Source of the DNA: Acaryochloris thomasi RCC1774
Lineage (GTDB): Bacteria > Cyanobacteriota > Cyanobacteriia > Thermosynechococcales > Thermosynechococcaceae
Length of the DNA: 32,000 nt
Assembly: GCF_003231495.1 (NCBI RefSeq)
Contig: NZ_PQWO01000002.1
Location: forward strand, 210,001-242,000
Direction of reading: 5' to 3'
Shown: one piece after another, positions 3,132 through 28,690 of the stretch
Layout of the letters: the number at the start of each line of letters is the position of its first letter
Position numbering within the stretch: position 1 is the stretch's first letter
The notes under the pieces: model-generated
The model's database searches: none
Told to the model about the DNA's origin: nothing
The model's input: only the letters and a program-made list of their open reading frames with translations
Program-made: the position numbers and the translations under genes

Positions 3132-4247
3132 ATGCCTGCTCAACAAAATACACCTTTGGTTTCCCCCGCGAAGGCTTTGCAAAAAGTCATTGCCGAACAG
3201 CGATCGGGTCGCCTGCAGATTCAAGACATTAATGATCCCTCCATCGGCTGGCGCGTTTATTTCGGCGCTGGACAAATTCATTTTGCCGAAAGCACGATGG
3301 GCTGTGGCGATCGTCTGCGGTATATTCTGCGTAAGCACTCACTGGGCTTAGAAGGGCTCCCCACCCCTGCCGACGCGACTTCTGATTATCCGCTTCTATG
3401 TCAGTACTGGCAGGCCCATAATCTGCCCCTCAACAATTTTCGTAAGCTCCTAGCGATCTGTACCCAAGAAGCCCTGATTCAATTCTTGGCGATTGCCCAG
3501 AGCCACATTGCCTTTGAAGCCACTATTGGTCTTGATCCACTGCTGCTGTCGGTGCCGTTTCGGCAATTGATTTTGCCGGTCCGTGATCATATTGGCCAGT
3601 GGGCGCAGATCCGAGCTGATCTCACCTCCCCTTTTCAACGCATTTTTATCCACGACCGTGAGCAGTTTCTTAAATTCGTGTGGCAAGAAGCCGAAAAATG
3701 GCAGCAGCTTCAGGGCATTAGTCACGACCCTGCAGAAGCAACTTGCCTCTATGACCTTGCCCACCAGCTCGGTATCGATGTTCTCGAGCTAGCTGCCGGT
3801 CTCCAGCCCCTCTGTCGCAGCGGCGTACTGGGTGTTCAGCCCTATCAGGTGATTACACAAGAAGCGCAGCCCGTGATTGCCTGCGTTGACGACAGCGCCA
3901 CGATCCAGCAGTTTGTCAAACTCTCCCTAGAGTCGTCTGGGTATGAAGTGCTATCGCTGCAGGACCCCACTGAGGCCATTCCTCACCTAGTTGAGCGTCA
4001 GCCGCTCGTGATTTTAATGGACATTGAGATGCCTAAAATTGACGGCTATGAGCTTTGTCGCATGGTTCGTCAAGTGGATGAACTCAAAGAGGTGCCCGTG
4101 GTCATGCTCACGGGACGCGACGGCATTATTGACCGCGTACGCGCTCGAATGTCCGGCTGCACAGCTTACTTAACCAAGCCTTTCAATCCCCAGGATTTGC
4201 TGGCGCAGGTGCAAAAACTGGCGACTGAGCCTGTGGTTAGCGTCTAG
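3132..4247 (+). CDS. PatA-type response regulator (PATAN/DUF4388-like N-terminal region + C-terminal receiver domain)
   Basis: 371 aa. The C-terminal REC domain shows VIACVDDSATIQ, ILMDIEMPKIDGYEL (phospho-acceptor Asp), VVMLTGRDG and AYLTKPF. The N-terminal ~240 aa (SGRLQIQD...WRVYFGAGQIHFAES) resembles the PATAN region of PatA/PixG/PilG-type regulators. Confidence 0.8.
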   Translation: MPAQQNTPLVSPAKALQKVIAEQRSGRLQIQDINDPSIGWRVYFGAGQIHFAESTMGCGDRLRYILRKHSLGLEGLPTPADATSDYPLLCQYWQAHNLPLNNFRKLLAICTQEALIQFLAIAQSHIAFEATIGLDPLLLSVPFRQLILPVRDHIGQWAQIRADLTSPFQRIFIHDREQFLKFVWQEAEKWQQLQGISHDPAEATCLYDLAHQLGIDVLELAAGLQPLCRSGVLGVQPYQVITQEAQPVIACVDDSATIQQFVKLSLESSGYEVLSLQDPTEAIPHLVERQPLVILMDIEMPKIDGYELCRMVRQVDELKEVPVVMLTGRDGIIDRVRARMSGCTAYLTKPFNPQDLLAQVQKLATEPVVSV

Positions 4248-9523: not shown

Positions 9524-10558
9524 GTGGGCCTGTTTAGTCGATTATCACGGGATATTGGTATTGATCTCGGGACAGCCAATACGCTTGCATACGTCTCTGG
9601 TAAGGGCATTGTCCTGCAAGAGCCATCAGTGGTAGCTGTTGATCAGATCACAAATCAAGCGCTGGCGGTGGGGGCTGATGCAAAGCAAATGCTGGGGCGA
9701 ACCCCTGGTAATGTGGTTGCCATTCGGCCGCTGCGCGATGGTGTCATCGCTGACTTCGAGAAGGCCGAGCTGATGCTGCAGCACTTTATTCGACGGGTGC
9801 ATGGGGGCAAAAATCTGGTGGCTCCCCGCGTCATTGTGGGCATTCCCAGTGGTGTGACGGGCGTAGAGCGTCGGGCTGTGATTGAGGCCGCAACCCAGGC
9901 TGGTGCACGGGAAGTCCATCTTCTAGACGAACCGGTAGCGGCTGCGATTGGGGCGGGTCTCCCGGTGGAAGAGCCGACCGGCAACATGATTATTGATATT
10001 GGCGGCGGCACCACCGAGGTGGCGGTGCTGAGTCTGCAGGGCAGCGTGATTAGTGAGTCTGTCCGGGTTGCGGGGGATGAACTCACAGAATCGATCACGC
10101 AGTATATGAAAAAGGTTCATAATCTGGTCATCGGAGAACGAACGGCAGAAGATATTAAAATCAGAATTGGCTCTGCTTATCCCAGCAACAGCAATGATGA
10201 TGCCTCTATTGATGTGCGCGGCCTTCACCTGCTGTCGGGTCTTCCCCGTACTGTCTTAGTGAAGGGACCCGAAATTCGGGAAAGCATGACCGAGCCGCTC
10301 TCTGCCATTGTGGAATCTGTGAAACGCACGCTGGAGCGAATGCCGCCGGAGCTGGCTGCAGATATTGTCGATCGCGGCATTATGCTGGCGGGCGGGGGGG
10401 CCTTGCTCAAGGGCATGGATACGCTTGTGAGCCATGAAACCGGCATTGTTGTTCATGTCGCGGAAGATCCTCTGAGCTGCGTGGTTTTAGGAACCGGTAG
10501 AGTGCTGGAGAATTTTGATCAACTATCCCGCGTTTTCAATAATGGCAGCCGTTTTTAG
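9524..10558 (+). CDS. mreB: Rod shape-determining actin homolog MreB
   Basis: 344 aa. Motifs are MGLFSRLSRDIGIDLGTANT, DEPVAAAIGAG, IIDIGGGTTEVAV and GIMLAGGGALL. The GTG start at 9524 follows AGGTAGGA. It is followed by mreC and mreD. Confidence 0.95.
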   Translation: MGLFSRLSRDIGIDLGTANTLAYVSGKGIVLQEPSVVAVDQITNQALAVGADAKQMLGRTPGNVVAIRPLRDGVIADFEKAELMLQHFIRRVHGGKNLVAPRVIVGIPSGVTGVERRAVIEAATQAGAREVHLLDEPVAAAIGAGLPVEEPTGNMIIDIGGGTTEVAVLSLQGSVISESVRVAGDELTESITQYMKKVHNLVIGERTAEDIKIRIGSAYPSNSNDDASIDVRGLHLLSGLPRTVLVKGPEIRESMTEPLSAIVESVKRTLERMPPELAADIVDRGIMLAGGGALLKGMDTLVSHETGIVVHVAEDPLSCVVLGTGRVLENFDQLSRVFNNGSRF

Positions 10559-10634
10559 GCATGGTGGGGTCTAGCCTCTCTCGTAACATCAGTTATAAGA
10601 GGAACAGAGTTTAGCAGACGTTCATCGGGTACCC

Positions 10635-11405
10635 ATGTCTTTTTTATCTCGCTGGTGGGGGCAGTATCGCGGCATTCTATTTCTGGGTGTGGTGAGCATC
10701 AGTACTGCCTGGGTGGTGCGCCAAACGCAGGGAGAGCTGCTCTCTGAACTCTATCGGGTGATCACGCTGCCGTTTCAGGGGAATCCTGCCCAGCAGCAGC
10801 AGCTCATTGCGGCTAAAACCTGGGAGCAGCAGCAAATGATTGCTGATCTGAAAGCCCAAAACCAAAATCTGAAAAAGCTGCTGGATCAGCCTGCGGTGAA
10901 GCAAGATGTTGCGATCGCAACCCCTGTCATTGGTCGTGGAGCCGATCACTGGTGGCAGCAGATCATGGTGGGTCAGGGTTCCAGAGCAGGCATTGCAGAA
11001 GGGGCCGTCGTTCAGGCCCCCGGCGGCTTAGTCGGTCGGGTCACCAAAGTGACAGAAAACACCAGCCGCGTCTTGCTCATTACCGATCCCAGCAGCCGCT
11101 TGGGTGCCACCATCAGCCGCAGTAGGGATATGGGAATCTTGAGGGGGCAATCTAACAAATTCGCCATTATTGAATTTTTTGAGAAAGACCCCGACGTGCG
11201 CGTAGGTGACTCCGTGGTGACCTCATCCCTCAGTCGCCTCTTTCCGGCGGGCGTTGCCATTGGCACAGTACAATCCCTTAAGCTAGAGCAGGTCTCCAAG
11301 CCCCAAGCAATCGTTGAACTCTCCGTTCCCATTGCTAACCTCGAATGGGTAAGCGTCTCCTTTGATGGTCAGAACTCGACAAAAAAAAGCGCCCTTAACC
11401 CTTAA
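10635..11405 (+). CDS. mreC: Rod shape-determining protein MreC
   Basis: 256 aa. It has an N-terminal TM segment, a coiled-coil (QQLIAAKTWEQQQMIADLKAQNQNLKKLL) and a beta-rich C-terminus (GGLVGRVTKV, RLFPAGVAIGTV). It sits between mreB and mreD. Confidence 0.88.
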   Translation: MSFLSRWWGQYRGILFLGVVSISTAWVVRQTQGELLSELYRVITLPFQGNPAQQQQLIAAKTWEQQQMIADLKAQNQNLKKLLDQPAVKQDVAIATPVIGRGADHWWQQIMVGQGSRAGIAEGAVVQAPGGLVGRVTKVTENTSRVLLITDPSSRLGATISRSRDMGILRGQSNKFAIIEFFEKDPDVRVGDSVVTSSLSRLFPAGVAIGTVQSLKLEQVSKPQAIVELSVPIANLEWVSVSFDGQNSTKKSALNP

Positions 11406-12007: not shown

Positions 12008-13903
12008 ATGCATCTGAGCGAGGTTGTTCACCCTAACCAGCTTCACGGGTTGTCCGTTCATCAGTTAGAACAGATTGCTCGCCAGATTCGTGATAAACAT
12101 CTGGATACTGTTGCTGCAAGTGGGGGGCATTTGGCACCCGGCTTGGGCGTTGTTGAACTCACCCTAGCGCTGTATCAAACCCTCGATCTCGATCAAGATA
12201 AAGTGATTTGGGACGTGGGGCATCAGGCCTATCCACACAAGCTGATCACGGGGCGCTACGATCGTTTTCATACGCTCAGGCAAAAAGACGGTATTGCAGG
12301 CTATCTGAACCGTAAAGAAAGCCGGTTTGACCACTTTGGTGCGGGTCATGCCTCTACCAGCATCTCTGCGGCTTTAGGGATGGCCATGGCTCGGGACCGC
12401 CGAGGCGAAAAATTTAAGTCTGTCGCCGTCATTGGTGATGGTGCTCTCACTGGGGGTATGGCTCTAGAAGCGATTAACCATGCGGGTCATTTGCCCCACA
12501 CAAATGTAATGGTGGTGCTCAATGACAACGATATGTCTATCTCACCCAATGTTGGGGCGCTCTCACGCTACCTCAATAAGATTCGTCTGAGTCCCCCACT
12601 CCAGTTTCTTTCTGACAATCTTGAAGAACAGCTCAGACAGCTCCCCTTCAACGAAAACATTACGCCTGAACTGATGCGGCTCAAGGGTGGCATGAAGCGT
12701 CTGGCTGTTTCCAAGGTAGGGGCCGTTTTTGAAGAGCTGGGCTTTACCTATATGGGGCCGGTGGATGGCCACAATATTGAAGAGTTAATCGCGACCTTTC
12801 AAGAAGGCCACCAGCATCAGGGTCCGGTATTGGTCCACGTTGCTACGATCAAAGGCAAAGGCTACGAAATTGCTGAGCAGGATCAGGTGGGCTACCACGC
12901 TCAAACGCCTTTCAACATTGAGACGGGTAAAGCGATTCCTTCAAGTAAGCCCAAGCCACCCAAGTATTCAAAGGTTTTTGCCGAAACTCTAATCACCATC
13001 GCTGAGAACGATCCCTACGTGATTGGCGTAACGGCGGCGATGGCAACCGGTACCGGTCTTGATAAGCTACAGGCAAAACTGCCGAAGCAGTATGTCGACG
13101 TCGGTATTGCTGAGCAGCATGCGGTGACGCTGGCGGCGGGGATGGCCTGTGAGGGTATGAAGCCAGTGGTGGCTATTTATTCCACCTTTCTGCAGCGTGC
13201 CTATGACCAGATTATTCACGACATCTGTATTCAAAAGTTGCCGGTTTTCTTTTGCTTGGATCGGGCAGGTATTGTTGGGGCTGACGGACCGACTCATCAG
13301 GGCATGTATGACATTGCCTATCTGCGTTGTCTGCCGAATATGGTGATGATGGCTCCTAAAGACGAAGCTGAACTACAGCGGATGTTAGTCACCGGAATTA
13401 ACTATACAGACGGTCCGATTGCGATGCGCTATCCGCGTGGCACTGGTTATGGTGTTGGCACCCTGGAAGATGGGTGGGAATCATTGCCGATTGGTAAGGC
13501 AGAGACGCTGCGCCAAGGGGATGATTTGCTTATTTTGGCTTATGGGTCGATGGTGTATCCCGCTGTGCAAACGGCTGATGTTCTCAGTGAACATGGTATC
13601 CGGGCGACCGTGGTCAATGCTCGCTTTGCCAAGCCGCTAGATACCGAGCTGATTTTGCCGTTGGCCCGTGAGATTGGGCAGGTGGTGACTCTGGAAGAGG
13701 GCTGTGTTACGGGCGGTTTTGGTACTGCAGTGGTTGAGGCCCTAATGGATGCCCAACTGATGGTACCTGTGACTCGCATCGGTGTACCTGATGAGCTTGT
13801 GGAGCATGCAACGGCAGATGAGTCTAAGGCGGCTGTGGGGCTGACCATCCCTCAGATCGTAGATCGTATCCTACAGGCTGCTAAGAAACCCGCTTTGGCC
13901 TAG
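12008..13903 (+). CDS. dxs: 1-deoxy-D-xylulose-5-phosphate synthase
   Basis: 631 aa. Motifs are [32 protein letters not shown], the TPP-binding [36 protein letters not shown] and [13 protein letters not shown]. Confidence 0.96.
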
Positions 13904-13952
13904 AGTGATGCTCTATTTCTTCTTTAACGTTCATTCATTGTTCTCTTGATCT

Positions 13953-15020
13953 ATGGCTCCCAAGTTGAATAGTCCGGTGTATCCCGTTGTCTGGTGTGAT
14001 GACCACGTGCAGCTTATCGATCAAACGAGACTACCGGGTGAACATACGGTGGTTGAGATTCGTCGCTCAGGCGATATGGCAACGGCGATTCAAACGATGA
14101 TTGTGCGGGGCGCTCCTGCGATTGGGGTGGCTGCTGCTTTTGGTATGTACCTTGGGAGTCGCGAGATTTCGACTTCGGACCGAGAAGCTTTTCTGCAGCA
14201 GCTTGAAGGCATTGGTAAGACCTTGGGGGCAACACGACCCACGGCGGTGAATTTATTCTGGGCCGTTTCTCGCATGCTGAAGGTGGCGCAGGGGAATCCC
14301 GGCAGCGTTGGTGACATTCAGGCGCAGCTCTTACAAACGGCAGTTGCGATCGCATCTGAAGATGTTCAGACTTGCAAAGCCATCGGTGAACACGGACTCT
14401 CAATCTTGCCGCAATCCCCTGAAAAACTGTGTTTGCTGACCCACTGCAACGCAGGCGCTTTAGCCACCGCAGGATACGGCACTGCCCTGGGCGTGGTGCG
14501 CTCAGCCTGGACTGCGGGGCGTCTAGCTCAGGTCTATGCAGACGAAACCCGCCCTAGACTTCAGGGTGCCAAGCTGACCGCCTGGGAATGTGTCCAAGAG
14601 GGTATTCCCGTAACCGTGATTGCCGATGGTATGGCGGCCCACTGTATGCAGCAGGGCATGATTGACCTCGTCGTCGTTGGAGCTGACCGCATTGCCGCCA
14701 ACGGTGACGCCGCTAACAAAATCGGCACCTACAGCGTTGCCCTCTGTGCCCAAGCTCATAAAATTCCCTTTTACGTTGCTGCGCCACTGTCCACAATTGA
14801 CTTTGACCTCACGGACGGCAGCAAAATACCCATCGAAGAGCGCCATCCTTCAGAGCTTTACCAGTTGGGCGACCTCAATATCTGTCCTCCTGGCGTTGAG
14901 TTCTATAACCCTGCCTTTGACGTGACGCCTGCAGCCTTGATTGCAGGCATTATCACCGAACACGGCGTCTTCAAGCCAGAGGACGTTCAGAGCCAACTTC
15001 AGCATCTCGCTCACGCATAG
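13953..15020 (+). CDS. mtnA: S-methyl-5-thioribose-1-phosphate isomerase
   Basis: 355 aa of the eIF-2B alpha/beta/delta-like family. Motifs are [54 protein letters not shown] and [20 protein letters not shown]. Confidence 0.92.
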
Positions 15021-17760: not shown

Positions 17761-17910
17761 ATGACCGTTTTTTGTCATGCAGTTGCCGTTACGTTGCTGT
17801 TGACTGGGTGGTTATGGTTCTCAGATTTTCTCTCTATTAAAGGCCCTCAACCTGCCTCAAATAGCAAGACTGAGCAGGTAAATCCCCTGCGTATTGGGAT
17901 TGCATTTTAA
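17761..17910 (+). CDS. Possible small single-TM membrane protein (49 aa; 57 aa from GTG 17737)
   Basis: This ORF is my own reading and falls below the ORF-track cutoff: MTVFCHAVAVTLLLTGWLWFSDFLSIKGPQPASNSKTEQVNPLRIGIAF. It has one clear hydrophobic helix. Its TAA (17908-17910) interlocks with the rhodanese stop (17907-17909). I see no homology support. Confidence 0.3.
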   Translation: MTVFCHAVAVTLLLTGWLWFSDFLSIKGPQPASNSKTEQVNPLRIGIAF

Positions 17911-18743
17911 GTTTCAAGCTGGACTGTCATTGTCGAATCGAGCGGATAGGAGCACCAGTCACTCCAGCTCCCGGCGTAAAGTTTACCCTTAATGCCTGTT
18001 GCTTCAAGGGCCATGAGGTTGACGCAGGCGGTGACGCCTGAGCCGCAGTAAACAATGACTTCTGAAGTGTCGAGCGTTCCCCAGTGGTGGCGCAGTTCTG
18101 ACGGAGCTTTTAGGTATCCGCGTTCATTTGTGACGGCTTTCCAGGGATAGTTGATGGCCCCAGGGATGTGGCCTGCAATCGGATCAATGGGTTCTCGCTC
18201 TCCACGGTAGCGATCGCTATCCCGTGAGTCTACTAGCGTTTTATCCCGTCTGTGGGCGACGGCTTGGATCTCTGTGACCATGTGGGATTGAATTATGGGT
18301 TTCAAGTTTCCTGCTCGAGGCGGAGGAATCTCGTCGGTGACCGGATAGCCTGCTGCTTGATAGGCTGAGAAGCCACCGTCTAAGACGGCTGACCGTGGAT
18401 GTCCTAAATAGCGTAGGAGCCACCATAGGCGAGCGGCGAAGGCGAACCGGCTGTCATCGTAGCTGACGACTAACGTTTCGGCGGTGACGCCCATATTGGA
18501 GAGCTTGGTGGCGAGCTGTTGTGGATCGGGCAGCGGATGTCGCCCTCCGTGGGTCTGGACGGGAGCAGCAAGATCTCGATTGAGATCTAAGTAATAGGCC
18601 CCTGGGATATGGTTATGCTCATATTGCTGCCGTCCCAGGTCTGGTTCCTGCAGCGAAAATCGGCAGTCAATGACGACGATTGATTGACGATACTCGGCAA
18701 GCCACTGGGGGGATACTGTTACTGTCTCTATTGCTGAACTCAT
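17907..18743 (-). CDS. sseA: Tandem-rhodanese sulfurtransferase (3-mercaptopyruvate/thiosulfate sulfurtransferase, SseA-like)
   Basis: 278 aa with two rhodanese domains. The active-site loop CGSGVTAC is the mercaptopyruvate-sulfurtransferase type (CG[ST]GVTA). HIPGA motifs occur in both halves. Confidence 0.85.
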   Translation of the reverse strand: MSSAIETVTVSPQWLAEYRQSIVVIDCRFSLQEPDLGRQQYEHNHIPGAYYLDLNRDLAAPVQTHGGRHPLPDPQQLATKLSNMGVTAETLVVSYDDSRFAFAARLWWLLRYLGHPRSAVLDGGFSAYQAAGYPVTDEIPPPRAGNLKPIIQSHMVTEIQAVAHRRDKTLVDSRDSDRYRGEREPIDPIAGHIPGAINYPWKAVTNERGYLKAPSELRHHWGTLDTSEVIVYCGSGVTACVNLMALEATGIKGKLYAGSWSDWCSYPLDSTMTVQLET

Positions 18744-22958: not shown

Positions 22959-23050
22959 AGAGATGATAAAGATCCAGAGTTGCTTAACTAATCTTTATAA
23001 AAACTAGCATATCCTTAATAAAGACCAATTGATTGATTGAGATTGCTGAT

Positions 23051-23764
23051 ATGCAACACAACGCTCATGATGCAGCGACAGAGGGCGCTGTGTCGCGCGA
23101 TTTAGAAGCACTGATCTTTGATATGGACGGGGTTCTCTGTGACACGATGCCGTTCCATTTAGCTGCTTGGCTGCAGTACAGCTCCACCGTTCCTGAGCTA
23201 GCTGGGGCCAGTCAAGAGCGGCTAGAGCAGATGGGAGGTAAGCGCAATCAAGAGCTTTTGCCTGAGCTGCTTGGTCGCCCTGTTCCTAAAGCGGATGTTC
23301 GGCGCTGGGGAGCTGAGAAAGAGGCTGTTTATCGAGATATGATTCGAGGCCGCATTGAGTGGTTACCTGGCCTCGTCGAGTTTTTAACTCAGGCCCAGGC
23401 TAAGGGACTGCGGCTGGGTCTAGGAACCTCTGCTTGCCGAGAAAATGTAGAGCTATTGCTTGCCCATGAAAACCTGGGTGATTTCTTTGAGGTGCGGGTC
23501 ATTGATGCTGATGTTGAGCGGGGTAAGCCGGACCCGCAATGTTACTCGCTAGTGGCTGAACGGCTTGGGATCGCGCCAGAAAAGTGCCTGGTGTTTGAAG
23601 ATGCAACGGCGGGCGTGCAGGCGGCTCGCAATGCGGGGATGGCCTGTTGGGGAGTGCTGACCACCTGTTCTGCGGTCGCGCTCCATGATGCTGGAGCTGA
23701 ATACTGCATCAAAAACTTTCAAGATTCTTGTTTGCCCGTTATCATGCCTCAAGCATCGGTTTAA
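23051..23764 (+). CDS. HAD-superfamily hydrolase (beta-phosphoglucomutase-like subfamily IA)
   Basis: Motif I is LIFDMDGVLCDT, motif II is LGLGTSA, and motifs III/IV are KPDP...VFEDATAGVQAARNAGM. The ORF-track start at 23033 is TTG. The ATG at 23051 is preferred. Confidence 0.82.
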   Translation: MQHNAHDAATEGAVSRDLEALIFDMDGVLCDTMPFHLAAWLQYSSTVPELAGASQERLEQMGGKRNQELLPELLGRPVPKADVRRWGAEKEAVYRDMIRGRIEWLPGLVEFLTQAQAKGLRLGLGTSACRENVELLLAHENLGDFFEVRVIDADVERGKPDPQCYSLVAERLGIAPEKCLVFEDATAGVQAARNAGMACWGVLTTCSAVALHDAGAEYCIKNFQDSCLPVIMPQASV

Positions 23765-23784
23765 GGTCAGGGCAAGAAAAAATA

Positions 23785-23827
23785 GGAGGCGCTCGGCTGA
23801 TACCTCGATAATCAGCCGAGCGCCTCC
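23785..23827. terminator. Strong bidirectional intrinsic terminator (17-bp perfect GC-rich stem)
   Basis: GGAGGCGCTCGGCTGAT (23785-23801) is the exact reverse complement of ATCAGCCGAGCGCCTCC (23811-23827). The loop is 9 nt. On the minus strand the stem is followed by ATTTTTTCTT, a canonical rho-independent terminator for the halogenase transcript. It also lies 21 nt past the HAD stop. Confidence 0.85.
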
Positions 23828-23869: not shown

Positions 23870-25459
23870 CTACGCAGCGGCTCTGAATGAGTGATTTTGG
23901 TGTAGGCTCTGTAGTGCTTGATGGGTGCTGGGTAGCTGCTGAGCCAGAGCGTTGGTTCTCAGACGAATATCGGCAAAGATCTGCTCAGCTTTCTCAACAG
24001 CTTGCGGGTTGTGCTCTAAAATCGGTGGACTTTGGTCTGGATAGACGCCCATTCCGGCTAGAACGCAGTAGTAGTTAGAGTTAGACCAAAAATTCTCGAA
24101 TTCAAAATCGAAGGCGCTATAGTAGTCGGCGGAATTGGAGACCACGGCACCCACGGGTAAACCAGCCTTGTAAAGATCAAGTTTTTCTTGAATCGAGTCA
24201 GACTTTTTCAGGTCATAGCGATTAGTCTGCCAAAAGACAGTATCTTCGCGTCCCGTGGTGAAGTAGTGCATCTGTACGAAGTCGCGGCAGTCGTCAAACA
24301 TCCAGGTGACTTTGCGGTTGAACTGTTTTTGGAGCTGTGGCTCCAGTGCTTGAGATGGCCAATGCTTCACGAGCTGGTAAAGGGTGGCATAGATAAAGTA
24401 AATTCCGGTGGACTCCAGGGGTTCTAAGAAGCTTGATGCTAAGCCAATGCCGACGCAGTTCTTGACCCAGGCGCGCTCAGTACGGCCCACGCGGAACTTA
24501 AGATGCTTGAGGGGCTGTCGTTCATCTAAGTTCCAAAGTTGCTGAAACTCTTGGGTGGCTTCGTCTTGGGAGCAGCTCTGGCTGGAATATACGTATCCGG
24601 TGCCGAAGCGTCCCTGCATTGGGGTTTTCCAGGTCCAGCCGTGCTTCATGGCGATGGCTGAGGTATAAGGTTCGATGCCGTGCTGATCGTCGTCATGGGG
24701 AACGGGTGTGGCGACGGCGGAATCACACAGGAGGGCGTCGTTCATTTCTATAAATGGCTCGCTGAGTGCCTTACCCAGCAGTAGGGAACGGAAGCCAGAG
24801 CAGTCAATGAAGAGATCGGCAGTTAGCTGTTGGCCGGTTTTGGTTAGTACCGACTGGATATTGCCAGTTTCGGGGGATAGAGCAACCTCAACGACGTCAT
24901 CGACGATCCGGTTGACGCCTCTTTCTGTTGACCATTTTGTGAGATATTCGGCGACCAGATGAGCGTCAAAGTGCCAGGCGTAGTACATGGCAGGGTTGCG
25001 ATCGCAAAACACCGGACTCAGCTTCTGATCCAGTAGCGCTGCCTCAGAATAGCAAGCATACTGCATGGCCCCTGCCGTCTCACCTGCGAGGTGCTTCCGC
25101 AGCCAATATTGCTGGAGTGGAATGCCCTCACAGGTCGGCATCCCGCCAAAAATATGATAGAAGGATTTATCAGGCCGTCCAGGCGATGGGGTTTGGCTCC
25201 AGTTAACAAACTTGACCCCAACCTTGTAAGAACCATTGACCTGCTGCATCCACTCTTCTTCAGGAATACCTAGAAAGTTAAAGAAGACCTGCTGCAGGCT
25301 GGGCAAGGTGGCCTCGCCGACGCCAATTTTCTTGACGACATCTGACTCAATGAGAGAAATCTCTACATCGTTGCCCAGCGCCTTGGTCAGATAAGAAGCT
25401 GTCATCCAGCCCGCAGTGCCGCCGCCGACAATCAAGATTTTTTGGATGGGTTGGTTCAT
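23870..25459 (-). CDS. Flavin-dependent tryptophan halogenase (PrnA/RebH class)
   Basis: 529 aa, collinear with RebH/PrnA as I recall those sequences. Matches are the FAD site ILIVGGGTAGWMTASYL, GVGEATLP, NGSYKVGVKFVNW (Lys at residue 79 by direct count), YAWHFDAHLVAEYL, DCSGFRSLL, SAIAMKHGWTWKTPMQGRFGTGYVYSS, FLEPLESTGIYF (catalytic Glu) and WSNSNYYCVLAGMG. Confidence 0.92.
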   Translation of the reverse strand: MNQPIQKILIVGGGTAGWMTASYLTKALGNDVEISLIESDVVKKIGVGEATLPSLQQVFFNFLGIPEEEWMQQVNGSYKVGVKFVNWSQTPSPGRPDKSFYHIFGGMPTCEGIPLQQYWLRKHLAGETAGAMQYACYSEAALLDQKLSPVFCDRNPAMYYAWHFDAHLVAEYLTKWSTERGVNRIVDDVVEVALSPETGNIQSVLTKTGQQLTADLFIDCSGFRSLLLGKALSEPFIEMNDALLCDSAVATPVPHDDDQHGIEPYTSAIAMKHGWTWKTPMQGRFGTGYVYSSQSCSQDEATQEFQQLWNLDERQPLKHLKFRVGRTERAWVKNCVGIGLASSFLEPLESTGIYFIYATLYQLVKHWPSQALEPQLQKQFNRKVTWMFDDCRDFVQMHYFTTGREDTVFWQTNRYDLKKSDSIQEKLDLYKAGLPVGAVVSNSADYYSAFDFEFENFWSNSNYYCVLAGMGVYPDQSPPILEHNPQAVEKAEQIFADIRLRTNALAQQLPSTHQALQSLHQNHSFRAAA

Positions 25460-25605
25460 GATAATTCTCGCTTCGTTGTAAAAATATTGGCATCACAATC
25501 TCTCTGCACTCTGCAAGCAGGCTGCCCCGGCTTTTTACCTTCGCTGCTTGATCGTGCCGCTAGGATTGTCTATTCAGGAGTTCTGTACGCAATACTTGAG
25601 TCGTT

Positions 25606-26538
25606 CTAATTCATTCGTGCTAGTGCTGGTGACTCTACGAGTCGATGATGCGGCTCTGGAGACACAACGCTAGACATCAGATATTCAATTGTTTGCTGCT
25701 TGACCCACCCGTGGCCGGACAGTATTTCTCCGAGGCGCTGATGTCGGCTCTGCTGTTCTAAAAGGGCTAGATCCAACTGCTCTAAAGTAATGAGACCGGC
25801 CTCTAGGAGATGGGTGCCCAGGCGAATGGGCTGCTGGACCGGGATGGAGACAGGGTGTTTTTTCGCGTAGGCCAGCATTTCGTCGGTAAATGCAGTAAAG
25901 ACTTCAAAGATGCGATCGACGATCGCGAGCTTCTCAGCCCGATCTTCATTGGTTAACTCAAGCTCTTCGATGATGGGGACAACATCGTCTGAACTGTAGG
26001 TGTGGGCTGAATCAACCTCAAGGTGACCACTGCCAAAGTATCGATACCTCTGATGCGTTTTTGCTTCCAGGGACTGAATGATTTTTGCTGAAGCCGTTAG
26101 CAACACATTTCCGGTTGACTCCACCACTTCAATCACAACTAGCTTCTGGGCGGGAGAACATTGGTGGGTGTAGTGGTACAGCTCCTGGGTTACGCGCTGG
26201 GCGCAGACTGTTTCTTCATTCCAGAGGATTGCTAAGGCTTCTCGAAAGCTGAGATCTGGATTAAGACCTAATTTTTCTAAGTCCTCTAAAAACCAAACCC
26301 AGTGGTAATCGTCTTCATAGGTGTGCTGATTTATAATCGCCTGCAGCGGATCATCGCTGCTTTCATCTCGTAATACGTTCTTGTTGAGTTCTCCAAAACT
26401 CATCACGAAAGGGGCTGCACAGGGTGCAAACGCGAATCGCTGCCTGGGAGAAATACTGTCGTCTCTGAGATAGTCAAAAAATGGAAGCTGAGAAAAGTCT
26501 TTTTTCCTCTGCTCAATATATTGAAGGATAGGCTTCAT
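25606..26538 (-). CDS. Candidate heme-oxygenase-like diiron oxidase (HDO / iron-containing redox enzyme family) fused to a C-terminal MshEN-like c-di-GMP-binding motif pair
   Basis: 310 aa. GAGGA lies 9 nt upstream of the ATG. Residues 1-225 are helical with candidate metal ligands H72/E75/H79, E137/E140 and H172-x3-D176-x2-H179. Residues 239-262 (RLGTHLLEAGLITLEQLDLALLEQ) and 268-291 (RLGEILSGHGWVKQQTIEYLMSSV) are separated by 5 residues. The enzyme family is inferred from motifs, not from an alignment. Confidence 0.55.
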   Translation of the reverse strand: MKPILQYIEQRKKDFSQLPFFDYLRDDSISPRQRFAFAPCAAPFVMSFGELNKNVLRDESSDDPLQAIINQHTYEDDYHWVWFLEDLEKLGLNPDLSFREALAILWNEETVCAQRVTQELYHYTHQCSPAQKLVVIEVVESTGNVLLTASAKIIQSLEAKTHQRYRYFGSGHLEVDSAHTYSSDDVVPIIEELELTNEDRAEKLAIVDRIFEVFTAFTDEMLAYAKKHPVSIPVQQPIRLGTHLLEAGLITLEQLDLALLEQQSRHQRLGEILSGHGWVKQQTIEYLMSSVVSPEPHHRLVESPALARMN

Positions 26539-27352
26539 CTATATAATTCCTCGTGTGAATGCCTCCGAGCCTTGATTTAAAAGCTCAGTAAAAACTAGTG
26601 ATCTAACTAAGGTGAAATATATGAGGATTCTCAATCTAAAAAAATCAACCTAAGGATATATATTTGGATGATCTTATCTAGATTTTGAAGAAGAATATGA
26701 TTCCTGATCCTCATATTATTTCTGGTATTTCTTGAGCAGTAACTCAAGAAATACCGATGCAGAAATAAAGAGTTAGCGCATTGCAGAAACGACTGTGCGC
26801 TGACAAGATATAAATCTCTAAAGGGCTATAAGTAGCTCATGATACCAATCCGTTGGTCATGAGCTAGTCTGCTTCAATAGCTGCCCTGTAAGGTTCCCCA
26901 AAAAACTAATGCCTTCACCGTCATTCCCATGCAAAGTAGGGAAGCCGGCTGGCATTCAATTCTAAACTTGTGATGTTCAAACTATCTTTAGATGGTTCTT
27001 TCTTGATAGATATTCAATAAATATATCCATCAAGCCATGAAAATGATAGTCAGCATTGCTTGGAAATAGAATATCTGAGTTCATTTTCTTTAGCAATGAT
27101 TGAATGAGTGAAACTTTTGATCACTAAGCGATCCCCCCGGCATCTCAACTTTTCACATGATACATTATATTTTTTTTTAATCAAGTATTTAATATTGCTA
27201 TGCAAAAAAATATGATTTTCTAAATTAATTTATTTGTTTTCTGTTGGTTTTTAGGTTCAATTTAAAACTTATTTTGTTTGATTTAAGACGTGATTCGTAT
27301 GCCTTGGTTGATTTATGCTGGGCTCGGTTGATTTGTTTTTGTTCTGTCTAAC
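26539..27352. promoter_or_regulatory. 814-bp strongly AT-rich non-coding region upstream of the HDO-halogenase operon (and downstream of rsmB)
   Basis: No ORF longer than 35 codons on either strand by my reading. G+C by direct count is 9/60 (27181-27240), 16/60 (27241-27300), 15/60 (26641-26700) and 18/60 (26581-26640). It contains perfect inverted repeats and phased short direct repeats. Confidence 0.6.
26724..26755. promoter_or_regulatory. Perfect 13-bp inverted repeat GGTATTTCTTGAG-N6-CTCAAGAAATACC
   Basis: Read directly: arms are 26724-26736 and 26743-26755, with spacer CAGTAA. There is no flanking T-run on either strand, so it is not a canonical terminator. It starts 186 bp upstream of the HDO start codon and extends to 214 bp. 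Confidence 0.45.
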
Positions 27353-28690
27353 TTACGCAATATTTTGTTTGACTTTGGCAATAAAGAATCCGTCCATTGC
27401 TCGTTGGTGAGGCCAGATTTTCATCCATCCTGATGACTCTTGCCAGGTGGTGTGAGCCGCTGCAATGTCGGGTGGCTCAATGCTCCAGCCGGGATGGTTG
27501 TTGAGGAAGGCCTCAATGACGCATTCATTCTCGTCAGGGTGTAGGGTGCAGGTGGCGTAGACGATTGTGCCGCCAGGTTTTACCTGTTGAGCACTGGCCG
27601 CCAGTAGTTCGCTCTGTAATTGATTGAGTTGCTTCACTGTTTGGGGTGTTTGCTGCCAGCGGGCGTCTGCGTGTCGATGCAAGGTGCCGAGGCCAGAGCA
27701 GGGGGCATCAATTAATAGGGAGTCTGCCGGTGGGATCTGTTCAGGAAGGCTGCGACTGTCTCCGGTCCACTGCTGGACGTTATGGATGTCGAGGCGGGTC
27801 AGGTTCTGCTGCAGTTTGCGGAGACGAGAAGAGGTGCGATCGCAAGCCCAAATGTCTCCTTGTCCCTGCATCAGCTCAGCCATGTGGGTGGTTTTTCCGC
27901 CCGGAGCAGCACAGATATCGACCACCACCGAATTGGGCTGCGGATCTAGAACATGGCTCACAAGCTGAGCGCTGGCATCCTGTACGGTCCACCAACCCTC
28001 TTTAAACCCTGGGATCTGGGGAATGGGTCCGGCGTTGTCTTGAATACGGAGCGCTTGGGGAAGGTGAGCGATCTGCTCCACTTCAATCCCCACCGCTTCA
28101 AGCTGCTCCTGGACCGCTGCGCGCGTCGTTTTTAGCGTATTAACCCGAATGTCGAGAGCTGGGGGCTGATTGAGATAAATGCACAGCAGCTCCGTTTCCG
28201 CCGCACCAAGCTGAGAGAGCCACACCTCAATAATCCAGTCAGGATAGCTGTGCTGTACTCCGAGGTGCTGCACGGGATCGGTCGGTAAAGTGAGTGGATC
28301 GTCCGTTTGTCTGGCGTACCGACGTAGCAGACCGTTGACGAAGCCCGAGAGTCCTGACAGTCGATTTTGCTTAGCGAGTTCTACTGTTGTGTTGACCGCC
28401 GCCGAGACTGGGATTTGTTCTAGGTATCGAAGCTGGTAGAGTCCCAGATGCAGCAGGGTGCGTAAATCAGGGGGCTGTTGGTGGGCAGGCTTTTTTGCAA
28501 ACTGATCGATCAGAGCATCTAAGGTTCGCTGGCGACGGGTGCAGCCATACAGAAGCTCAGTGGCGAGCCGCCGCTCAACATCAGAGGTGGGATGCTGGAG
28601 TACTCTGTTGAGGGCAACATCGGCGTAGGTCCCCTCATGAACGGCTTTCAAAGCCCAAAAGGCAAGTTGTCGAGAAGAATGCTGACTCAA
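27353..28690 (-). CDS. rsmB: 16S rRNA (cytosine967-C5)-methyltransferase RsmB/Sun
   Basis: 445 aa. It has a NusB-like N-terminal domain. The SAM site is VVDICAAPGGKTTHMAE, and the catalytic Cys motifs are DAPCSGLGTLHRHADARW and IVYATCTLHPDENE. The ORF-track start at 28688-28690 is TTG, with no upstream in-frame ATG. Confidence 0.92.
   Translation of the reverse strand: MSQHSSRQLAFWALKAVHEGTYADVALNRVLQHPTSDVERRLATELLYGCTRRQRTLDALIDQFAKKPAHQQPPDLRTLLHLGLYQLRYLEQIPVSAAVNTTVELAKQNRLSGLSGFVNGLLRRYARQTDDPLTLPTDPVQHLGVQHSYPDWIIEVWLSQLGAAETELLCIYLNQPPALDIRVNTLKTTRAAVQEQLEAVGIEVEQIAHLPQALRIQDNAGPIPQIPGFKEGWWTVQDASAQLVSHVLDPQPNSVVVDICAAPGGKTTHMAELMQGQGDIWACDRTSSRLRKLQQNLTRLDIHNVQQWTGDSRSLPEQIPPADSLLIDAPCSGLGTLHRHADARWQQTPQTVKQLNQLQSELLAASAQQVKPGGTIVYATCTLHPDENECVIEAFLNNHPGWSIEPPDIAAAHTTWQESSGWMKIWPHQRAMDGFFIAKVKQNIA

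Follow-up and report, generated by a model that had tools for sequence, protein, structure and literature searches.

A tryptophan halogenase and an AetD/SktA-family diiron oxidase with a predicted c-di-GMP receptor module form a putative operon in Acaryochloris thomasi RCC1774

Introduction

The closest described system is the skt cluster of Nostoc punctiforme NIES-2108, which encodes the skatole synthase SktA, the tryptophan 5-brominase SktB and the FMO SktC (Adak et al., JACS 2025, PMC11869266). With that 2025 report the pairing of an AetD homolog with a canonical-type tryptophan halogenase was already in print, and SktB, despite looking canonical, was active without a reductase (PMC11869266). 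AetD itself coordinates its metals through D76, H79, E140, H172, E176 and H179 (PMC10654658), and its S214 contacts the 7-Br of the substrate. The AetD versus the SktA outcome is not yet predictable from sequence, and its determinants are not established (2026 review). As for regulation by c-di-GMP, the E. coli glycosyltransferase-MshEN protein NfrB is activated for catalysis when its C-terminal MshEN binds the second messenger (PMC8669469).

Here we analyze a stretch of 32,000 nucleotides from Acaryochloris thomasi RCC1774 (contig NZ_PQWO01000002.1, positions 210,001 to 242,000; hereafter the window). A first-pass annotation of this DNA had described a free-standing two-gene cassette of a halogenase and a heme-oxygenase-like diiron oxidase (HDO) as a third, different combination of such enzymes, a claim that the skt cluster overturns. 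The annotation had located both ORFs, and all of the motifs quoted for them, correctly.

Results

The flavin-dependent tryptophan halogenase gene (23870..25459, minus strand) encodes 529 aa and matches PF04820 with E=1e-158. All of the hallmark motifs named in the first-pass annotation were located in the product: GGGTAGW (residues 12-18), K79 in NGSYKVGVKF, GWTWKTP (the WxWxIP motif, with T replacing I), FLEPLESTGIYF and WSNSNYYCVLAGMG. Identity to PrnA is 59.3% over the full length, and the catalytic K79 and the E346 equivalent are kept, as are all of the residues with which PrnA binds free tryptophan (H101, F103, Y443, Y444, E450, F454, W455 and N459); the latter are likewise conserved in the halogenases of the related loci L001, L081, L082 and L083. 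Judged by these matches, the protein is a PrnA/RebH-class tryptophan halogenase, as first annotated, within a cyanobacterial clade sister to PrnA. PDB bit scores were 739 for PrnA, 645 for RebH, 621 for Thal and 342 for PyrH, a ranking that puts the 7-halogenases PrnA and RebH above the 6-halogenases (about 621-627). At the five positions that switch Thal to RebH the enzyme carries L52, V82, T, S and N, three of which are of the 7-type, with V82 of the 6-type (as in Thal) and L52 of neither type. The regioselectivity is likely C7 on sequence grounds. The further label of a two-component-type enzyme is not inferable, since SktB looks canonical yet needs no reductase.

The oxidase gene (25606..26538, minus strand) encodes 310 aa, a 100% match to NCBI protein C1752_00787 of Acaryochloris thomasi RCC1774. 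Its HDO catalytic domain (residues 1-228; 25855..26538, minus strand) was delimited from a gapless AetD alignment and a conservation table; phmmer aligned the protein to AetD across residues 1-229 with E=3e-51, and it is 47.0% identical to SktA and 36.7% identical to AetD. In a tree of oxidase homologues, AetD forms a long outlier branch and the window oxidase sits in a clade separate from SktA (Acaryochloridaceae/Thermosynechococcaceae). The AF2 model (pLDDT 87) shows the seven helices of a heme-oxygenase-like fold and superposes on AetD. Foldseek matched it to 21 AetD chains with TM 0.87-0.92 and rmsd 1.5-2.0 A over 228 columns, and to HDOs other than AetD with E of about 1e-2 to 1e-3 only. 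Sequence and model together identify the 310-aa protein as an AetD/SktA-family heme-oxygenase-like diiron oxidase and a true AetD homolog, which upholds its first-pass reading as a diiron HDO bearing a regulatory tail.

Ligands and pocket residues of AetD were taken from PMC10654658 and PMC13108848. Homology to the AetD crystal structures predicts D76, H79, E140, H172, D176 and H179 as the ligand set of the window oxidase, so that every AetD ligand position is kept, with D176 in place of E176. Among 50 homologs no substitution of H79, E140, H172 or H179 was seen; D76 reaches at least 90% conservation, and all 82 tabulated sequences have D or E at position 176. The first-pass annotation had proposed H72, E75, H79, E137, E140, H172, D176 and H179, all of which are present; H79, E140, H172, D176 and H179 stand as ligands, whereas H72, E75 and E137, though conserved, do not serve as ligands in AetD, and D76 had been missed. 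The pocket is lined by F44, V139, T142, L146, Y167 and F214, among which F44 (indole stack) and Y167 (carboxylate contact) are conserved. At the diagnostic positions 139/142/214, AetD has M/A/S, SktA has T/T/F and the window oxidase has V/T/F; none of the AetD-specific M139, A142 and S214 is present, the SktA-type T142 and F214 are, and V139 is the residue of neither enzyme.

The first-pass annotation had noted the regulatory tail and left it unidentified. The tail is indeed there, and its residues 239-291 (25666..25824, minus strand) correspond in sequence and model to a complete MshEN module of the c-di-GMP-binding type, which would bind c-di-GMP. The region scores 50.4 bits against NCBIfam NF053729 (cutoff 38), and profile matches to PDB entries include PilF (E=9e-20) and c-di-GMP-bound MshE (5HTL, E=9e-11). 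It is laid out as motif 1 (R239-Q262), a 5-residue spacer (Q263-Q267) and motif 2 (R268-V291); every position of motif 1 fits the 24-residue MshEN motif and the spacer length is exact, while motif 2 is off consensus at two positions (S at 7 and V at 24). Both structure models give the tail four helices. The top 13 Foldseek matches are MshEN/GSPII-type N-terminal domains of MshE or PilF, 11 of the 13 c-di-GMP-bound, and the match to 5HTL_A has TM 0.80 and rmsd 1.0 A over 55 columns, with E-values of only ~0.1, the domain being small. The MshE binding residues R9, L10, G11, L25, Q32, G40, L54 and L58 correspond to R239, L240, G241, L255, Q262, G270, I284 and M288. The tail is conserved in at least 70 relatives (70 of the 120 nearest clusters), with two copies in 28 of those 70, and the module also occurs on the adjacent O-methyltransferase in L004 and on an HDO-FMO fusion. 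In the window oxidase it directly follows the last catalytic helix, which contributes the pocket residues F211 and F214, and it could therefore couple catalysis to c-di-GMP.

A different reading, which concerns the tail alone and has no bearing on the product question, is that of a degenerate MshEN-like helical module for oligomerisation, enzyme assembly or partner docking, with no c-di-GMP catalytic switch. The two departures in motif 2 would suit it, as would the replacement of R by P at motif position 1 in many family members, although the relaxed motif of Wang et al. permits P there. Docking would also fit the occurrence of the module on both the HDO and the O-methyltransferase of L004, and no domain contact is predicted because the linker (residues 229-238) has low confidence in the AF2 model. 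Nevertheless, the residues whose mutation weakens MshE binding are all kept or conservatively replaced, the score exceeds the curated NCBIfam cutoff, c-di-GMP-bound MshE and PilF head the structural matches, and the conservation across at least 70 clusters is strong. We regard a tail of this non-switching kind as somewhat unlikely.

The two genes are separated by a 146-bp spacer (25460..25605, minus strand), which is of similar length in relatives (136-150 bp) and poorly conserved in sequence; because of this gap there is no translational coupling. The spacer had been suspected of hiding an internal promoter, and a consensus scan of its minus strand found no promoter-like or terminator-like site. 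The pair lies between the housekeeping genes first reported, a HAD hydrolase gene (23033-23764, plus strand) that converges on the halogenase gene and the RsmB gene (27353-28690, minus strand). An intrinsic terminator (23774..23827, minus strand), recognized from an inverted repeat and the minus-strand sequence, lies just past the halogenase stop, between the convergent halogenase and HAD genes, and consists of a perfect 17-bp stem (23785-23827) with a 9-nt loop followed by the T-run TATTTTTTCTT on the minus strand. At the other end, 814 bp of non-coding AT-rich DNA (26539..27352, minus strand) precede the oxidase gene, a length largely kept among relatives (680-811 bp), and GC content is 36% at 26501-27500 versus about 52% elsewhere. 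The pair thus has its own AT-rich control region and its own strong terminator, as the first-pass annotation had it.

Within this upstream region we found a Shine-Dalgarno sequence, GAGGA (26548-26552, minus strand), before the oxidase gene and, by consensus scan and in an alignment block, a promoter-like TTGATT-N16-TATCAT (27157..27184, minus strand), which is kept in four sister loci and lies some 620 nt before the start codon of the oxidase gene. Between them, the sister-locus alignment contains a hairpin (AATGCC...GGCATT) followed by T6 and the conserved block TTTTTTGGGGA..TACAG (26886..26956, minus strand). RNAalifold reported compensatory change in 7 of its 11 pairs (from 4 sequences only) and an Rfam search of the region gave no match; the hairpin is a candidate attenuator or sRNA terminator. 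An operator-like palindrome, CTTGAG-TTACTG-CTCAAG (26731..26748, minus strand), is partly conserved in L001/L082 and L081.

Pfam scans of the other window ORFs of at least 120 aa, three of which had no Pfam match at all, detected no NRPS/PKS, flavin reductase, transposase or integrase, in agreement with the first-pass annotation. Among the window ORFs scanned there were likewise no GGDEF or EAL genes and no aet-pathway P450 or tryptophanase; the window contains no FMO of SktC or any other type, and its ORFs offer no second candidate consumer of halo-tryptophan.

The order oxidase then tryptophan halogenase on a single strand recurs in 26 of 80 related genome loci (L040 among them), with halogenases of two clades: PrnA-like in L001, L003, L005 and L081-L083, and SktB-like (PyrH clade) in Nostocales. 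Since the order recurs at this frequency with two halogenase clades, the adjacency is not chance. The site beside rsmB is itself conserved in relatives whose oxidases are 60-85% identical, so the cassette is not free-standing; at this site the oxidase is constant, and the accessory genes, namely the halogenase and a cytokinin-dehydrogenase-like flavoenzyme, vary. Accessory genes of the sister loci encode, among others, an O-methyltransferase and the cytokinin-dehydrogenase-like FAD oxidase, which matches plant CKX with E=6e-40. Natural fusions join a Trp-prenyltransferase with an HDO and an HDO with an FMO, the latter inside the tailed clade (P0122). Half of the tailed oxidases (L002, L004, L006, L007, L015 and L084) have no nearby halogenase; the family can thus do without halogenation, and plain tryptophan may be the main substrate of the oxidase.

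Discussion

The explanation we favor, and consider rather probable as a whole, is that the two genes form one operon (long leader, oxidase, 146-bp spacer, halogenase, strong terminator) for tryptophan halogenation and SktA-type oxidation under c-di-GMP control. By homology, the halogenase would chlorinate or brominate free L-tryptophan, most likely at C7, consuming reduced flavin, O2 and halide. The amino-acid end of the (halo)tryptophan would then bind Fe1 and trigger O2 activation, as in AetD, after which the oxidase would remove or rearrange the alanyl side chain. As a member of its family, the oxidase would be expected to bind two Fe(II) and to form a peroxo-diferric intermediate triggered by substrate. 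Because the oxidase resembles SktA more closely than AetD and carries T142 and F214, cleavage between C-alpha and C-beta to halo-skatole, cyanide and CO2 appears to be the most likely outcome, with a probability approaching one half. The most likely products would accordingly be 7-halo-skatole and cyanide, and the oxidase would be controlled by c-di-GMP at the protein level, with the C-terminal 53-residue MshEN binding the messenger and coupling catalysis to its level, as in NfrB. A functional link between the two genes, and a halogenated tryptophan derivative with a remodelled side chain as the product, had both been proposed in the first-pass annotation and are supported.

We would like to note several observations that run against this explanation. 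V139 matches neither AetD nor SktA, motif 2 of the tail is imperfect, GGDEF, EAL and flavin-reductase genes were not found in the window, and half of the tailed oxidases are without a nearby halogenase. F214 is said to suit a substrate without a C7 halogen, which is at odds with a 7-halogenase-like partner; the regiochemistry may differ (V82 is Thal-type and L52 neither) or the pocket may adapt.

Should the oxidase instead be an AetD-like nitrile synthase, it would turn 7-halo-tryptophan into 7-halo-indole-3-carbonitrile through an oxidative rearrangement in which the nitrogen migrates. The shared fold and ligand set would allow this. AetD, the sole family member whose structure has been solved, accepts Trp, 5-Br-Trp and 5,7-diBr-Trp, and its native substrate is halogenated at C7, which would also hold for what a PrnA-like 7-halogenase makes. 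The lower identity to AetD than to SktA, the position of AetD as a singleton outlier both in our tree and in the published network (PMC11869266), the lack of M139, A142 and the 7-Br contact S214, and the failure to find an aet-pathway P450 or tryptophanase in the window all point the other way, and we consider nitrile formation unlikely. A third, undescribed transformation of (halo)tryptophan (for example to an aldehyde, hydroxylated or N-oxygenated product), with the flavoenzymes and methyltransferases of the sister loci processing the product, is less likely still. The clade is distinct from AetD and SktA, V139, L146 and D176 differ from both, the accessory genes encode a CKX-like FAD oxidase and an O-methyltransferase where skt has the FMO SktC, and HDOs are noted for carrying out different reactions on nearly the same substrate; against this stand the SktA identity and ligand set with T142 and F214, and the fusion P0122, which ties the tailed clade to SktA/SktC-type logic. 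That the genes are neighbors without joint function, the oxidase acting on plain tryptophan and the halogenase in a separate pathway, is highly improbable. For six tailed oxidases no halogenase is in reach, Trp without a halogen is a substrate of SktA as well as of AetD, and the 146-bp gap precludes translational coupling; but the genes share one strand, with no terminator found between them and a single strong one behind the pair, their adjacency is repeated with halogenases of two unrelated clades, SktB feeding SktA is experimentally validated (PMC11869266), and no alternative halo-Trp consumer candidate was found in the window.

Comparison with known systems

In the skt cluster, as in the favored operon, an AetD-family oxidase gene immediately precedes a Trp halogenase gene on the same strand. 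SktA is 47% identical to the window oxidase and shares its ligand set, T142 and F214; SktA has T139 and E176 where the window oxidase has V139 and D176, and it is a 237-aa protein without the MshEN module that the window oxidase carries at its C-terminus. SktB is 44% identical to the window halogenase and belongs to the PyrH clade (best PDB matches: the 5-halogenases 8FOV and PyrH), whereas the window enzyme belongs to the PrnA clade, and skt includes the FMO SktC, a type the window lacks. What is new here is the building of a predicted c-di-GMP receptor module into an AetD/SktA-family oxidase, a halogenase partner from a clade other than SktB's, and a conserved rsmB-adjacent site with a constant oxidase and a variable halogenase and flavoenzyme.

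AetD of the aetokthonotoxin pathway (PMC11611611, PMC10654658) has its fold (TM ~0.9, rmsd 1.5-2.0 A), six metal-ligand positions, F44 stacking and Y167 carboxylate contact in common with the window oxidase, and the AetF/AetD and window pairs would follow a common logic of Trp halogenation and then side-chain remodelling. At 37% identity, the window oxidase differs in lacking M139, A142 and S214; AetD has no tail and is a phylogenetic outlier, and AetF is a single-component halogenase unrelated to the window halogenase. BesD/BesC is alike in general logic, with a halogenase feeding an HDO that cleaves an amino-acid skeleton, but BesD is a halogenase of the Fe/2OG type, the pair acts on lysine, and BesC is a distant structural match to the window oxidase (~14% sequence identity), an analogy and not family membership.

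PrnA, the tryptophan 7-halogenase of pyrrolnitrin biosynthesis (PDB 2APG/2AQJ), resembles the window halogenase in its FAD motif, K79, E346 and Trp-binding residues; it has I52 and I82 where the window halogenase has L52 and V82, and is partnered by PrnB, PrnC and PrnD rather than by an HDO. The MshEN receptors of V. cholerae MshE and T. thermophilus PilF (PMC5013675) comprise 53 residues with two 24-residue motifs, a 5-residue spacer and a four-helix fold, as does the window tail, and NfrB (PMC8669469) and the window oxidase are alike in placing MshEN C-terminal to an enzyme domain. In contrast to known MshEN domains, the window tail consists of the 53-residue core without the MshEN_C part, and some relatives of the window oxidase carry tandem modules. 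Unlike in MshE, PilF and NfrB, the window MshEN is carried by a soluble diiron oxidase of small-molecule metabolism.

Genomic context of the gene pair

The first-pass annotation, which was made from the sequence alone, described a pair of genes on one strand, and this description was borne out: on the minus strand, a 529 aa halogenase ORF lies at 23870-25459 and a 310 aa oxidase ORF at 25606-26538, with 146 bp between them. All of the halogenase motifs and all of the His/Glu/Asp positions that it quoted for the 310 aa ORF were found, and the flanking genes encode a HAD hydrolase and RsmB, as it had noted. Elsewhere in the window, Pfam scans likewise detected no NRPS/PKS, flavin reductase, or mobile-element genes, and no GGDEF or EAL genes either. 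The remaining genes were assigned by Pfam to ordinary housekeeping functions (Amt, MreBCD, Dxs, FtsEX, rhodanese, DoxX, a CHAT protein, and response regulators). A PatA-type response regulator with DUF4388/PATAN and receiver domains is encoded at 3132-4247 on the plus strand. The 310 aa protein is 100% identical to the hypothetical protein C1752_00787 of Acaryochloris thomasi RCC1774.

The oxidase belongs to the AetD/SktA family

Searching the 310 aa ORF against Pfam retrieved no match even at E-values up to 1, PF14518 included; its family is without a Pfam model, and the protein was identified through PDB sequence search and NCBIfam. AetD was the PDB match (E=3e-51), aligning without gaps over residues 1-229. 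An AlphaFold model of the oxidase (50 homologs; mean pLDDT 87) superimposed on every AetD crystal structure with TM 0.87-0.92 and rmsd 1.5-2.0 Å, and the PolF, BesC, CADD, UndA, and TenA proteins were remote matches only. A TenA/thiaminase identity, which the annotation had named as the case against its own assignment, was rejected, with matches (E about 1e-2, TM 0.4-0.6) far behind AetD.

In crystals of AetD, Fe1 is held by H79, H172, and E176 and Fe2 by D76, E140, E176, and H179; F44 and I146 clamp the indole, Y167 contacts the carboxylate, and S214 contacts the 7-Br (PMC10654658, PMC11611611). At these positions, the window oxidase has D76, H79, E140, H172, D176, H179, F44, L146, Y167, and F214, and its metal ligands vary little or not at all among 50 homologs. 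As the AetD-type metal ligands are kept, the annotation was right to call this ORF a heme-oxygenase-like diiron oxidase (HDO), but of the eight residues that it named, H72, E75, and E137 are not AetD ligands, and it overlooked D76.

AetD homologs have been mined, mostly in cyanobacteria, and SktA of Nostoc punctiforme NIES-2108 has been characterised (Adak et al., JACS 2025, PMC11869266). SktA converts 5-bromotryptophan, and also plain tryptophan, to (5-bromo)skatole, cyanide, and bicarbonate, and its gene neighbours encode SktB, a canonical-looking and self-sufficient tryptophan 5-brominase, and SktC, an FMO (PMC11869266). We recovered the skt locus (L040). Our alignment gave 39.3% identity between AetD and SktA, in line with the published 39%; for the window oxidase, the values were 47.0% with SktA and 36.7% with AetD. 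Neighbour-joining of 82 domains placed AetD on a long outlying branch and the window oxidase in a separate Acaryochloridaceae/Thermosynechococcaceae clade inside the SktA-containing bulk of the family. The active sites of AetD and SktA differ at M139/A142/S214 versus T139/T142/F214 (2026 review, PMC13108848), and the window oxidase reads V139/T142/F214. As far as is known at present, the window oxidase more probably performs SktA-type chemistry than forms a nitrile, but what determines the outcome is not understood. F214 is said to suit a substrate lacking a C7 halogen, which is in tension with a partner that looks like a 7-halogenase. No consistent pattern was found between pocket residue 146 and the presence of a halogenase.

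A two-domain rhodanese of the thiosulfate:cyanide sulfurtransferase type is encoded at 17907-18743 on the minus strand, ~5 kb from the putative cyanide-releasing enzyme. It was rejected as a linked cyanide-detoxification gene, being missing in 80 of 80 related loci, and its presence here is probably a coincidence.

The halogenase groups with PrnA

The 529 aa protein matched PF04820 with E=1e-158. Against solved structures, its bit score was highest for PrnA (739), followed by RebH (645), the 6-halogenases Thal and BorH (~621-627), and PyrH (342); it is 59.3% identical to PrnA, 54.4% to RebH, and 44.0% to SktB. K79 and E346 are kept, as are all of the PrnA tryptophan-binding residues (H101, F103, Y443, Y444, E450, F454, W455, and N459). 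The Thal quintuple mutant V52I/V82I/S360T/G469S/S470N shifts selectivity from C6 to C7 (PMC7644825). At the five switch positions the window halogenase has L, V, T, S, and N, which makes C7 the best guess for its regiochemistry, with C6 as the alternative.

Halogenases of the sister loci form a cyanobacterial clade that is sister to PrnA. Two of these (L003:2735-4351 and L005:10861-12468) have A and S at RebH positions 469 and 470; since S470 is the residue of the 6-halogenase Thal, regiochemistry may differ within the clade. In both loci, the halogenase gene is followed by a gene for a Na+/H+-exchanger-family membrane protein.

A C-terminal MshEN module in the oxidase

Residues 239-291 of the oxidase matched NCBIfam NF053729 (MshE-related c-di-GMP-binding domain) at 50.4 bits, with a cutoff of 38. 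The first motif of this tail, RLGTHLLEAGLITLEQLDLALLEQ, agrees with the MshEN motif at every position and the second, RLGEILSGHGWVKQQTIEYLMSSV, at all but two, with QSRHQ as the five-residue spacer. A profile of 22 tails retrieved Thermus thermophilus PilF (E=9e-20) and, over the whole module, c-di-GMP-bound Vibrio cholerae MshE (5HTL; E=9e-11). The MshE residues whose mutation weakens binding (R9, L10, G11, L25, Q32, G40, L54, and L58) correspond in order to R239, L240, G241, L255, Q262, G270, I284, and M288 of the window oxidase. In predicted models the tail folds as four helices, and the 13 structures that it matches best are without exception MshEN/GSPII-type modules from MshE or PilF, 11 of which have c-di-GMP bound; it superimposes on 5HTL with TM 0.80 and rmsd 1.0 Å. 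The E-values of these structural matches are weak because the domain is small.

Of the 120 90%-identity clusters nearest to the oxidase, 70 have the tail, 28 of them with two modules, against only 6 of 150 family-wide 50%-identity representatives; the tail is therefore the mark of a single, well-populated subclade. Several 400 aa doubly tailed oxidases are also assigned DUF4388 in the precomputed Pfam list, which may reflect a likeness of DUF4388 to MshEN-like helices.

In Altericista sp. CCNU0014 (L004), an O-methyltransferase gene (L004:11351-12601) lies directly downstream of a doubly tailed oxidase gene, and residues 17-76 of its product form an N-terminal copy of the MshEN-type module, scoring 79 bits with the tail HMM and 36.7 bits with NF053729, just below the cutoff of 38. 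The 891 aa protein P0122 consists of an HDO, an FMO-type monooxygenase, and two C-terminal MshEN modules. These two cases tie the module to the pathway, beyond the window oxidase alone; its carriers are the HDO (once or twice), the HDO-FMO fusion, and the O-methyltransferase.

From the sequences we infer both c-di-GMP binding by the tail and the product of the oxidase. We tentatively propose, as a reading that falls somewhat short of an even chance, that c-di-GMP gates the diiron oxidase protein directly, such that at high levels (sessile or biofilm life) tryptophan or halotryptophan would be converted to volatile halogenated skatole and free cyanide, with the 53-residue MshEN unit acting as a portable switch that this lineage has added to several enzymes of the pathway.

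Loci of relatives and fusion proteins

In 26 of 80 genome loci, the next gene after the oxidase on the same strand encodes a tryptophan halogenase. This halogenase is PrnA-like in L001, L003, and L005 (67-90% identical to the window enzyme) and SktB-like in 23 Nostocales loci (~41% identical); the nearest solved relatives of SktB are 5-halogenases. The oxidase is therefore paired with halogenases of two different clades.

On the contigs of the closest relatives, the layout of response regulator, CHAT, RsmB, a 680-811 bp gap, and oxidase is kept. What follows the oxidase varies: in L081 and L082 it is the halogenase alone, with HAD, DUF4079, DoxX, and DUF975 genes next as in the window; in L083 it is a cytokinin-dehydrogenase-like FAD oxidase plus a halogenase; and in L084 and L002 it is the FAD oxidase alone. 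A conserved layout with variable followers indicates that the locus is inherited vertically, the oxidase being constant and the accessory genes optional, and we have dropped the reading of the cassette as a horizontally transferred island: its GC content (0.51-0.52) is like that of its surroundings, and the locus is syntenic across relatives.

The FAD oxidase (L083:7068-8453, L084:7066-8463, L002:10974-12440, L006:11354-12730, and L007:8107-9480) matches plant CKX structures with E=6e-40 and accompanies tailed oxidases repeatedly, whether or not a halogenase is also present. It might oxidise the indole product of the HDO. Just downstream of the cluster, several sister loci encode a giant signalling protein of about 2040-2460 aa (L003:5837-7687 onward, L004:12872-18997, L005:13910-20044, and L083:10947 onward) with Ser/Thr kinase, AAA/STAND, GAF, histidine kinase, and receiver domains.

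Two proteins of about 605 aa (P0168 and P0174) are tryptophan dimethylallyltransferases fused to an HDO, which reinforces a logic in which the indole ring is decorated and the side chain is then remodelled. The oxidase is the constant core, and its indole-decorating partners (halogenases of two clades, fused prenyltransferases) are interchangeable, which makes the family a good starting point for finding new indole metabolites. Another protein, P0082, is an HDO-flavoprotein fusion, and nine family-wide representatives of about 500-545 aa each have two query-matching stretches. Two of the nine, P0189 and P0223, were scanned and gave no Pfam match; they may be tandem HDO domains. A Microcoleus sp. 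locus (L028) has two paralogous tail-less HDO genes, at 10001-10684 and 13649-14332, 3.6 kb apart.

Regulatory DNA

Upstream of the oxidase gene is an 814 bp gap of about 36% GC, and its length is kept (680-814 bp) in five loci (the window and L081-L084). All five share a promoter-like TTGATT-N16-TATCAT (window 27184-27157, minus strand) and, ~250 nt downstream of it, a hairpin, a T-run, and the block TTTTTTGGGGA..TACAG (26956-26886, minus strand). The hairpin shows compensatory changes in 7 of 11 pairs, from four sequences only, and the 261 nt leader folds slightly better than shuffled sequence (z = -1.8). This leader could be of the attenuator type or a small RNA. A riboswitch or other known RNA in the spacer or the 814 bp leader was rejected, as Rfam searches of both gave no match at gathering thresholds and nothing beyond noise at E-values up to 5. 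No conserved small ORF or leader peptide was found in the upstream gap; the only tblastn matches, which fall on both strands, are explained by conserved DNA at the promoter-like block. A perfect palindrome, CTTGAG-TTACTG-CTCAAG (26731-26748, minus strand), lies ~200 nt upstream of the oxidase start codon, is partly kept in L001 and L082, and could be a transcription factor operator.

The 146 bp intergenic spacer is kept in length and poorly conserved in sequence among relatives. A consensus scan of its coding strand found no promoter, leaving unsupported the internal promoter that had been suggested for it. Right after the halogenase stop codon there is a perfect 17 bp stem, then a T-run.

Comparison with known systems

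The closest mechanistic precedent for the tailed oxidase is Escherichia coli NfrB, in which the MshEN domain at the C-terminus of a glycosyltransferase must bind c-di-GMP for the enzyme to be active (PMC8669469). A full-text literature search retrieved no papers linking HDO or diiron enzymes with c-di-GMP. If the proposed gating is true, this would be, per the searched literature, the first second-messenger receptor domain in an HDO or in any small-molecule biosynthetic oxidase. Known MshEN carriers are pilus and secretion ATPases and NfrB; here they are a soluble diiron oxidase, an O-methyltransferase, and an HDO-FMO fusion. Direct second-messenger control, known from machines for polysaccharides and pili, would thereby reach small-molecule chemistry as well, possibly of a toxic kind (cyanide, halo-indoles).

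For HDO enzymology, these oxidases form a third clade with many members, lying between AetD, which makes a nitrile, and SktA, which makes skatole and cyanide, and the hybrid active site (V139/T142/F214, D176) together with a probable 7-halogenase partner offers a natural test of the residues that decide the product. The interpretation given in the annotation is supported in part: it had presented the cassette as a "third, different combination" of halogenase and HDO, but the cassette is instead a variant of the published skt-type system (PMC11869266). Unlike SktA and AetD, which are without a tail, the window oxidase carries the MshEN module, and three things are new relative to the skt-type system: this c-di-GMP receptor module within the oxidase, a partner from the PrnA clade, and a conserved locus of modular make-up.
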